Position numbers and translations under genes: made by a program. This document shows, in pieces, positions 55,495 to 56,238 of a stretch of 64,000 bases of DNA (position 1 is its first letter; every line of letters begins with the position of its first letter). Source of the stretch: Candidatus Promineofilum glycogenicum (GTDB lineage: Bacteria > Chloroflexota > Anaerolineae > Promineifilales > Promineifilaceae); the NCBI GenBank assembly GCA_016707605.1, contig JADJHJ010000010.1:176556-240555 (forward strand), in the 5' to 3' direction. The notes under the pieces were generated by a model that saw only the letters and a list, made by a program, of their open reading frames with translations, did no database searches and was not told where the DNA came from.

Positions 55495-56238
55495 ATGACT
55501 ACCACCGACGCCTACCCATCCGAACTACAAGACCTCATCACCACCACCTTCAGCCGCCCCGACCTGGCCGACCTCTGCCTGCGCCTGGGCATCAACTTCG
55601 ACAGCCTGCCCGACGCCGGCGTGGCCGCCCAGGCCCGCGAACTCATCCTGCTGCTGGCCCGGCAGGAGCGGCTGCCGGAACTGCTGGACGCGCTGCGAGC
55701 CGTACGGCCCAACGTCGCCTGGCCGCCCGTTCCGCCCGGCTATCGGCTGCCCGCCGCCGCCCCGCCCGCGCCGACCGCCGGCGGCGGCAGCAGCTTCACC
55801 CTCGGCTCGGTCAAGGCCGACAACCTCATCGTCGGCAACCACGCCAACATGACCATCAACCAGGGGCCGCGCTACGACCTGTCGGGCGACTTCCGCGGGG
55901 CGCTGCTCAACATCGAGTCCACCTTGCGCGACACGCGGCAGGCCATCGAGAACCTGCCCGCGCCCGACGACGCCCGCGCCGCCCTCATCCGCCTCGTCGG
56001 CCGGCTCGACCGCGCTCTGCAAACCACGCCGCCCGACCGCGCGCCGCAGGCGGCCGAGGTGGCCGACATCACCAAGGAGTTGGTCAAGGCCGCCGGCGCG
56101 GCCCGGCCCCGCCCGGCGGTCTTGCGTGGCCTGGGCGACGAACTGCGCCAGGCCGCCGCCGCCCTGGCCGACGCCGTGCCCGCCGCGCCCGACATTGCCG
56201 ACCAACTCGCCTCCGCGGTCGTTGACTTAACGGCCTGA
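55495..56238 (+). CDS. Protein with N-terminal effector-associated-domain (EAD1-like, death-fold-like adaptor) and an uncharacterised Ala/Pro-rich C-terminal region
   Basis: LQDLITTTFSRPDLADLCLRLGINFDSLPDAGVAAQARELILLLARQERLPELLDALRAVRPN fits the EAD1 pattern (L..AF....L..L...LG.....L.G......A.ELI..A.R.GRLPEL..A.R..RP.N) seen N-terminal to effectors in STAND/WD40 conflict systems. Confidence 0.55.
   Translation: MTTTDAYPSELQDLITTTFSRPDLADLCLRLGINFDSLPDAGVAAQARELILLLARQERLPELLDALRAVRPNVAWPPVPPGYRLPAAAPPAPTAGGGSSFTLGSVKADNLIVGNHANMTINQGPRYDLSGDFRGALLNIESTLRDTRQAIENLPAPDDARAALIRLVGRLDRALQTTPPDRAPQAAEVADITKELVKAAGAARPRPAVLRGLGDELRQAAAALADAVPAAPDIADQLASAVVDLTA

Follow-up and report, generated by a model that had tools for sequence, protein, structure and literature searches.

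A five-helix-bundle protein with an EAD7 domain shares a short motif with the adjacent nSTAND1 NTPase and is a candidate motif-triggered partner

Many bacterial NOD-like receptor (NLR)-like NTPases have no recognizable effector domain, and it has yet to be explained how they signal. At a locus of Candidatus Promineofilum glycogenicum (contig JADJHJ010000010.1), a small gene stands immediately downstream from an NLR-like NTPase. We analyzed a stretch of 64,000 nucleotides around it (the window), whose positions are used throughout. An earlier note on this DNA had read the small gene as an EAD1-like adaptor fused to an unrecognizable C-terminal region, possibly a new effector, and had overlooked the most informative feature, a short motif common to this C-terminal module and to the N terminus of the adjacent STAND NTPase. 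We propose, with a probability of about 45%, that the small protein is the partner of the adjacent NLR (nSTAND1 NTPase, transmembrane [TM] helix, and WD40 repeats) and works as a non-enzymatic output module triggered through the motif, with its EAD7 domain as a second docking handle. The features on which the argument draws are as follows.

55495..56238, + strand, gene for the 247-residue EAD7/motif/five-helix-bundle protein (open reading frame and homologues)
55525..55710, + strand, EAD7 death-like adaptor domain, residues 11-72 (Pfam PF19960)
55711..55794, + strand, Pro/Ala/Gly-rich flexible linker, residues 73-100 (predicted local distance difference test [pLDDT] <50 for 88-103)
55795..55866, + strand, motif B variant FTLGSVKADNLIVGNHANMTINQG, residues 101-124, common to the N terminus of the neighboring NLR
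55867..55926, + strand, motif A PRYDLSGDFRGALLNIESTL, residues 125-144, start of helix 1
55882..56235, + strand, five-helix bundle, the DUF4404-like constant C-terminal domain, residues 130-247 (AlphaFold2 [AF2])
51684..53777, + strand, partner gene, first frame, with motif B, nSTAND1 NTPase, TM helix, and Ala-rich region (Pfam nSTAND1)
51741..51812, + strand, NLR-side motif B variant VVSHVEGEAVIIGDNARQQISYYG, NLR residues 20-43, shared with the small protein
53735..55491, + strand, WD40 repeats and C-terminal tail of the NLR in four further frame segments (six-frame reading, tblastn, and Pfam WD40)
56276..56344, no strand assigned, long perfect hairpin (fold of -64.7 kcal/mol, z of -4.9)

The small gene was found on the forward strand at exactly the coordinates given in the earlier note; it opens with ATG, ends with TGA, and encodes 247 amino acids (aa). 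GGAGG stands about 11 nt 5' of the ATG, and the start lies 3 nt past the point where the last of the upstream NLR frames stops. Among 5.8 billion proteins searched, 25 relatives were found, of which 21 have the length and architecture of the 247-aa protein at 55 to 98% identity, while three (P0022 to P0024) carry a zinc ribbon instead of the EAD and keep the remainder. The frame is intact and 98% identical to that of P0001. Because full-length homologues in this range of identity occur on many metagenome contigs, this is a real, conserved gene. A 226-aa open reading frame (ORF) on the reverse strand (55525..56205) was rejected as unsupported and of a kind usual in high-GC DNA.

The N terminus is an EAD-type adaptor, as the earlier note had it, although the EAD1 label has to be given up. 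EAD7 (PF19960) reaches 50.6 bits (cut-off of 32), with profile positions 1-62 of 62 spanned by residues 11-72, and EAD1 (PF19955) passes its cut-off of 24.2 with 30.0 bits, so that both profiles are cleared and EAD7 outscores EAD1. These domains and EAD6 are distantly related among themselves (Kaur et al. 2020, PMC7159879), and on the profile scores EAD7 is clearly the better label. The AF2 model of the 247-aa protein, run with the family alignment (mean pLDDT of 79), places four helices within residues 7-70, and the domain is small, all-alpha, and non-enzymatic with a death-like fold, like EAD7 in general. Low confidence is confined to residues 72-129, that is, to the Pro/Ala/Gly linker, whose 'WPPVPPGYRPP' is conserved within the clade, and to FTLGSVKADNLIVGNHANMTINQG after it. 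The C-terminal ~175 aa, in which the earlier note had seen no catalytic motif, indeed match nothing in NCBIfam or PADLOC, and Pfam finds nothing in the protein beyond the N-terminal EAD. As a whole, they are predicted to be neither disordered nor of low complexity: five helices (130-152, 158-175, 180-200, 207-223, and 231-246) are modeled with a pLDDT of ~90, so the model indicates that the 'Ala-rich' tail is a folded, non-enzymatic helical domain. Motif A (125-144) overlaps helix 1 of this bundle (130-152). The bundle has a likeness to scaffold bundles, among them talin R13 and THATCH; Foldseek gave no match of the AF2 model to the PDB at E<0.6, and a PDB sequence-profile search of the region gave coiled-coil noise only.

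The C-terminal region deserves to be called unrecognizable insofar as no curated profile matches it, but it is not an orphan. Residues 96-247 of 17 clade members (alignment A2) were made into a profile, and of the 1.84 billion representatives that it was run against, 901 (clusters at 50% identity) matched at E<=1e-3 and 490 at E<=1e-10. Among the matches listed, the module extends to the C-terminal end in all, and the part N-terminal to it varies from 0 to ~650 residues. In a Pfam census of the 148 best matches, DUF4404 was found in 64 representatives, EAD7 in 25, caspase in 12, EAD1 in 7, TIR in 3, and bDLD1 in 2, with CHAT, AbiTii, pentapeptide, and TPR in one each. The module occurs alone or behind EAD7, EAD1, bDLD1, caspase, TIR, CHAT, or a zinc ribbon, and the arrangement that the earlier note had assumed, a fixed EAD with an interchangeable C-terminal effector, is reversed: the C-terminal module is constant and the N-terminal head variable.

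DUF4404 (PF14357) matches helices 2-5 of many members (64/148 at E<=1e-3), mostly with scores of <27 bits, below the gathering cut-off (P0037 reaches 40.1 and P0036 28.5), and the window protein does not match it even at E<=10. Judging by these profile scores, the family appears marginally related to DUF4404 and the window protein linked to it transitively only. Two relatives, P0049 and P0039, match the C-terminal third of the PADLOC candidate PDC-M14B (E of 4e-6 to 2e-5), and the window protein does not. The open-access literature searched contains no paper with the term 'DUF4404', no function for DUF4404 or PDC-M14B, no relevant paper on PDC-M14, and no description of the motif-plus-bundle family, which may have been described elsewhere; the module is not described in the two papers of Kaur et al. 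(PMC7159879, PMC8195603) either. A scan of viral contigs found no relatives, hence no sign of phage-borne mimics. Most often, motif and bundle make up the whole protein (~125-150 aa), encoded beside an NLR without an effector domain, and such two-gene modules hold no other candidate effector. Over stretches of 19 aa, hydrophobicity in the family is highest in the last helix (median Kyte-Doolittle value of 1.67, often at least 2).

Motif A, with the family consensus GDTFNMSGDFRGAILNIKSTL and the form PRYDLSGDFRGALLNIESTL in the window protein, is the most conserved stretch of the family, degenerate in P0016 to P0020. We fetched 80 metagenome loci with the family alignment and scanned their six-frame ORFs with a 27-residue hidden Markov model (HMM) of the motif. 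Besides the family proteins, a second match appeared in ~65 loci (14-49 bits, E down to 3e-13), always in the next ORF downstream on the same strand and within residues 5-45 from its start. For the stand-alone form, the directly downstream ORF carries motif A in 60 of the 68 loci whose sequence continues for at least 250 nt downstream, and no motif-bearing ORF stands directly downstream in the other eight (L056, L057, L059, L071, L075, L089, L090, and L093). The gaps between the bundle gene and its partner are mostly 0-50 nt, and the partners are nSTAND1-TPR proteins of ~970-1000 aa (404-421 bits), NACHT-like proteins of ~718 aa, or DUF4062-iSTAND proteins. After the motif the partner sequence continues as ...SGDFRGAVINIKSTIVSNAEVKDLENLPPEPGEPPFQGLQYFDE..., an entry into nSTAND1 like ...VDSLEELPPKPGEPPYKGLTYYTE in the window. 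Across 52 non-redundant pairs, 13.8/22 motif residues (~63%) are identical between the two sides, compared with 13.42 +/- 0.10 in shuffled pairings, of which 5/5000 matched or beat the same-locus value, a result inflated by kinship among the loci. Rare forms of the motif are shared by the two members of a pair, namely, an NFNIKS insertion in L092 and loss of a Lys in L087 and L088. In L013 (251-3909), a 126-aa stand-alone member starting MGDKFDMSGDFQGAIINIKSTL lies 15 nt 5' of a DUF4062-iSTAND gene starting MATSDEYNLTGQFPDSTINIKSTI, followed by MoxR and vWA genes, that is, an iSTAND ternary system. Since this iSTAND protein itself starts with motif A, motif coupling appears to extend to MoxR-vWA systems besides NLR-like ones. 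A protease site or a targeting peptide was considered for the motif and rejected, since the common two-gene modules have neither protease nor transport system.

The pair in the window shares another motif. The closest relatives of the window NLR begin DQIxVGSIxGEGIAIGRNARVEINRY (motif B), and P0194 (IGSVSGEYVAIGDNARVVINYY) is intermediate between this canonical form and the HVEGEAVIIGDNARQQISYY of the window NLR. An HMM built from ten NLR N termini only was searched against 13,084 sequences, consisting of family proteins and six-frame decoys; its 19 best matches (10-23 bits) were all family proteins, just upstream from motif A as in GDKISVGDVSGSGIAIGRGASASV-TTGDTYSGDFRG, and decoys reached <=6 bits. 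Residues 101-124 of the window protein are the diverged motif B of its clade, within which motif B is better conserved than motif A. With an HMM of the clade, three NLR N termini were the best non-self matches, at 7-8 bits only. The Smith-Waterman score of the window pair was matched or beaten by 86/5000 shuffles, and hhalign of the two clade alignments gave 89% probability (E of 2.2e-6, 28 columns). From these comparisons we take it that the window pair shares motif B and that the small protein carries B and A in tandem. BLASTP of a zinc-ribbon variant against the NLR N terminus of L004 gave an E of 2e-8 through ribbon, linker, and motif, and since the ribbon-linker-motif N terminus of these variants resembles that of the NLR, the sequences suggest exchange of modules between the NLR and the small gene. 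The zinc-ribbon variants (P0022 to P0024, at loci L005 to L008) have no NLR neighbor; divergent AraC/glyoxalase genes flank them on one side and a ribosomal protein S1-like gene on the other. The N termini of 120 nSTAND1 relatives comprise motif B in ~19, motif A in ~17, EAD7 in 6, and EAD1 in 3, the remainder including TIR, kinase, cyclase, BTAD, and HTH. An adjacent partner was sought for one motif-B NLR (P0186, locus L094) and none was found, so not every motif-B NLR has its partner next to it. In the related motif-B NLRs of 682 aa, little sequence remains beyond the NTPase, and genes for secreted proteins come next (L094).

On the other side of the pair, the NTPase matches nSTAND1 (PF20703) with 418.5 bits over residues 63-448, has GASGSGKSS as Walker A, and is modeled with a pLDDT of 89; a C-terminal repeat sensor follows, with WD40 repeats at 291 bits in Pfam, in shifted frames. 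The orthologous NLR is unbroken in L002 (1289 aa) and L004 (1397 aa), directly 5' of the orthologous small gene, and the two genes are co-linear with a gap of 3-7 nt in the window, L002, and L004. The intact NLRs run from a zinc ribbon and a Pro/Ala linker through VVSHVEGQAVIIGDNARQQISYYG, nSTAND1, one TM helix, and WD40 repeats to a conserved tail. Comparison of the 5' ends (window 51540-51745, L002 6124-6330, and L004 147-330) showed that the window NLR has neither zinc ribbon nor Pro/Ala linker and is preceded by repeat-like intergenic sequence; the same ribbon-less N terminus recurs in an independent assembly (P0176, an ENA contig). One site of frame change in the window NLR looks like one surplus T within a run of 'AFSPDGT' codons, and the broken WD40 part is either a pseudogene or a mis-assembly of repeats. 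In the AF2 model of the NLR, disorder is predicted for residues 1-25, and residues 33-41 are a helix that packs against the NTPase (pLDDT of ~91). A conserved hydrophobic helix, FLYIAAGLAAVAVLAAIIAGIFGY (NLR residues 504-527, 53193-53264), lies between the NTPase module and the WD40 repeats, also in L002 and L004, and if it spans the membrane, the WD40 sensor would be outside the cytoplasm. A 22-bp perfect hairpin (56276-56344, from fold and pattern searches) stands directly 3' of the stop of the small gene, and for this reason the NLR and the small gene are taken as one unit. The hairpin is the probable end of a two-gene transcription unit, or it may be a repetitive extragenic palindromic (REP)-like or miniature inverted-repeat transposable element (MITE)-like repeat; a related copy of its arms lies at 51619-51641, just 5' of the NLR start. 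The element consists of GC-rich GCGTCCTGGCGTCC-type repeats, and similar translated strings are found near 58640-58790.

We propose that the pair would work as follows. The NLR would sense its trigger and oligomerize, bringing its N-terminal motifs into a cluster, and the clustered motifs would co-assemble homotypically with the copy in the partner, either by prion-like cross-beta templating, as in HET-S/NWD2 and BASS/Bell, or by exchange of the homologous helix. In the AF2 monomers, motif A of the partner and the second half of the NLR motif come out as helices and motif B as a coil of low confidence; since helices and not strands are predicted, the models make helix exchange at least as likely as cross-beta templating. 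Because motif A is part of helix 1, co-assembly would pull this helix out of the bundle and so unlatch it. The unlatched bundle could then be a non-enzymatic output, its last helix being, in most of the family, hydrophobic enough for membrane entry, or the assembly could concentrate whatever is fused to the bundle. Through the EAD7 domain, NLRs of the same lineage that bear EAD7 would be able to trigger the module, or EAD7-tagged enzymes would be co-recruited, so that three types of NLR could fire the window protein: its motif-B neighbor, motif-A NLRs, and EAD7-NLRs. All of these are present in the lineage, with EAD7-nSTAND1 proteins among the closest NLR relatives.

What the earlier note suspected, a new effector, fits the C-terminal part to the extent that it is conserved, folded, and non-enzymatic, and it is plausible that the bundle is the effector itself. 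The bundle is favored as the output because the commonest systems consist of bundle and NLR only, without another candidate, because the 'EAD plus X' arrangement in the grammar of Kaur et al. puts X in the effector slot, and because the last helix is the most hydrophobic stretch of the family. Several observations weigh against a motif-triggered output module. The motif similarity within the window pair is modest (~25% identity) and convincing at the profile level only, and motif A was sought in the window NLR and is absent. The 80 loci that provided the motif A counts are those closest to one query and sample one subfamily. The predicted helices do not favor a freely exposed amyloid motif at rest. 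The last helix of the window protein is not hydrophobic (Kyte-Doolittle value of 0.92, with three Asp), a fold match of the bundle to a pore former was sought and none found, and the caspase, TIR, and CHAT heads, carried by ~15% of the family representatives, fit an adaptor role for the bundle. No second EAD7 was found by tblastn and HMM in the 64-kb window and the related 20-30 kb loci, and the window NLR changes frame near 53735, 54100, 55260, and 55345 (six-frame reading and tblastn with the intact L002). The assembly state, toxicity, and membrane action of the module are all predictions.

The main rival, which we consider possible but doubtful, is that motif and bundle only dock on the activated NLR as a pure adaptor hub, the output being the N-terminal head and the bundle inactive; in the window, EAD7 would polymerize and recruit EAD7-tagged enzymes encoded elsewhere. 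EADs do join core components to effectors by homotypic contacts (Kaur et al. 2020/2021, PMC7159879, PMC8195603), the heads in the family include caspase (12), TIR (3), and CHAT (1) with EAD7, EAD1, or bDLD1 in 34/148, and the window bundle, far from hydrophobic, has its likeness in the talin R13 and THATCH scaffolds. Such a hub would leave the systems of bare motif-bundle and effector-less NLR without an output, however, and no EAD7 partner is encoded in the window or the related 20-30 kb contigs. An explanation confined to this genome, and unlikely in our view, is that the locus is a decaying relic whose sensor is a pseudogene and whose intact small gene no longer signals, which would be compatible with any mechanism of the family. 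The WD40 part has four frame changes, the zinc ribbon of L002 and L004 is missing, and the L001 copy also appears disrupted. Yet the other long ORFs of the window are intact, short reads readily lead to mis-assembly of WD40 arrays, the small gene is undamaged and 98% identical to P0001, and the ribbon-less N terminus is found again in P0176.

There is only a small chance that the shared motif is a trace of descent, for example, after the NLR acquired the 5' end of the small gene, and now an ordinary helix, the two proteins being linked through other surfaces. AF2 does predict a helix in both contexts, and with a fixed gene order a local duplication could have made the repeat. Descent alone would nevertheless have to account for a motif on three STAND clades (nSTAND1, NACHT-like, and iSTAND) that keeps ~63% identity between partners, whose rare variants co-occur, which is the most conserved stretch of the family, and beside which a second, unrelated motif B is distributed on both sides in the same way. 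We give a very small chance to the small protein being a negative regulator or decoy that binds the NLR motif or its docking site on the NTPase and, until its own displacement or degradation, holds the NLR inactive. In the predicted NLR structure the homologous helix lies against the NTPase domain, and the genes are tightly, probably translationally, coupled, like toxin-antitoxin-like pairs; against this, the NLRs in question have no effector domain that would need restraint, and fusions to caspase, TIR, and EADs belong to the grammar of outputs, not of inhibitors.

A partner protein triggered by an NLR motif has parallels in known systems. In Dyrka et al. 2020 (10.1101/2020.01.06.895854), BASS1-10 occur with Bell-domain partners and NLRs, and Ibarlosa et al. 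2024 (10.1101/2024.11.07.622273) describe Bab/Agp with BASS11; HET-S, Bell, and Bab are small helical domains acting at the membrane (10.1101/2024.11.07.622273 and 10.1101/2020.01.06.895854). The window pair is like BASS/Bell in its nearly abutting, co-linear genes for a small helical protein and a STAND/NLR protein, in a motif of ~20-25 aa with many G/N/D/S and beta-branched residues that both the partner and the NLR N terminus carry, in an NLR without another effector domain, in its occurrence in filamentous or multicellular lineages, and in the presence of the motif also on CHAT, TIR, and similar domains. It differs in that the motif is N-terminal to the helical domain and overlaps its helix 1 instead of standing at the C terminus, that the domain is DUF4404-like and not Bell, that nSTAND1 mostly, or iSTAND, takes the place of NB-ARC/NACHT as the NOD, and that the gene order is reversed in the window clade, with the NLR first. 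Neither motif A (SGDFRGAxxNIKST) nor motif B (IxVGxIxGxGIAIGRxA) occurs in the available part of the BASS text (10.1101/2020.01.06.895854). BASS are amyloid signaling sequences, and amyloid formation by motifs A and B is hypothetical. Identity with Bell or HeLo was rejected on account of the inverted order and the absence of a fold match. In HET-S/NWD2 the N-terminal motif of the NLR templates that of the partner, one of the two routes proposed here, and the partner often has two pseudo-repeats and the NLR one; the tandem of B and A recalls the effector-side pseudo-repeats of HET-s and BASS1/6. The motif region of HET-S also overlaps its helical domain, and refolding destabilizes the domain and frees a membrane-active segment, which is the model for helix 1 here. 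The two have no sequence or specific fold similarity, and domain and motif come in the opposite order; the segment that might enter the membrane is the last helix here and the first in HET-S, and the window protein adds a death-fold domain. By analogy, the pair would work like the HET-S/NWD2, BASS/Bell, and Bab/Agp motif pairs, and it is not a member of those families, because the domain is different and the motif lies on its other side and inside its first helix.

At the same time, the pair belongs to the world of EAD/nSTAND1 conflict systems of Kaur et al. The EAD-coupled NTPase systems (PMC7159879, PMC8195603) likewise have EAD7, nSTAND1 with a repeat sensor, variable N-terminal caspase, TIR, and EAD modules, and an occurrence in filamentous bacteria, and L013 is a canonical iSTAND-MoxR-vWA ternary system. 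Unlike them, the window does not have the same EAD on the core component and the neighboring gene, its NLR starting instead with motif B, behind a zinc ribbon in the intact orthologues, and the coupling is by a short motif that is not described there; the terms 'DUF4404' and 'amyloid' are absent from the text. EACC1 ('System 4' of Kaur et al. 2020, PMC7159879) is similar in being a small, constant, 5' component, alone or fused to an EAD, beside a large protein of variable make-up, sometimes with a STAND NTPase, and with a hydrophobic helix proposed at the membrane. It is, however, a single TM helix with short flanks next to a partner that starts with a caspase, whereas here a soluble five-helix bundle stands next to partners that start with a motif, and no shared motif is described for EACC1. 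Identity with EACC1 was rejected, with no Pfam EACC1 match even at E<=10, none in the family, and a different architecture; so were GAAD, which is confined to GAP1 GTPase systems, and vWA-L and VMAP-C, which are different domains, VMAP-C being alpha+beta.

The neighborhood of the pair was also considered. In close relatives (L001 to L004 and L009), an M23 or C39_2 peptidase gene (56265-58637) and an Amidase_2 gene with Golvesin_C (58731-61178) follow 3' of the pair. As parts of the system they were rejected, since the synteny is limited to close relatives and the hairpin lies between; P0011 and the zinc-ribbon variants have other neighbors. In L012, an unrelated locus of the family, a C39_2/GH25 gene (3956-6097) stands between an nSTAND1-FGS gene and S8 and caspase-bundle genes, and peptidoglycan-hydrolase-type genes beside family loci could be a coincidence or cell-wall effectors. 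Directly 5' of the NLR is a lysine-2,3-aminomutase-like radical SAM gene (50198-51535), and elsewhere the window encodes many very large surface-repeat proteins (Flg_new_2, FG-GAP, and NosD/SpaA-like; 1094-1397 aa) and a cyclic nucleotide (cNMP)-binding ABC ATPase adjoining a 934-aa FtsX permease. In L002 (1-5803), a SIR2_2 gene 5' of the NLR overlaps a second nSTAND1 gene (1659 aa, with a PPC domain) by an ATGA-type junction, so that this island is a cluster of several STAND systems. The source names of the nearest nSTAND1 relatives are Anaerolineae, Candidatus Promineifilaceae, and Caldilineaceae, several of the contigs being from wastewater, which suggests a filamentous member of the Chloroflexota as the host of the pair.

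For nSTAND1, some NACHT-like, and iSTAND ternary systems, these results suggest an answer to how an NTPase without an effector domain signals, namely, through a small helical partner recognized via a common motif. They would extend the HET-S/BASS principle to a new domain, to a motif inside the first helix of that domain, and to MoxR-vWA ternary systems, and suggest a role for a family of at least 900 clusters so far unannotated or marginally assigned to DUF4404. A tentative, bolder possibility is that the family is an undescribed, widespread STAND/NLR signaling-execution device, in which the sensor N terminus copies helix 1 of the partner bundle, prion-like or helix-exchange capture of this helix unlatches a non-enzymatic, membrane-directed effector, the interchangeable motifs A and B together with death-fold adaptors form a combinatorial code, and the window protein serves as a hub for multiple NLRs within one cell. 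Proteins of 126 aa, motifs of 22 aa, and co-varying pairs are natural material for tests. In the window protein, the HET-S/BASS principle and the death-fold EAD adaptor network would be physically joined in one polypeptide, and beyond an EAD with an unknown partner, the main interest of the locus may be a large NLR-coupled family with a two-sided motif code plus a death-fold adaptor.

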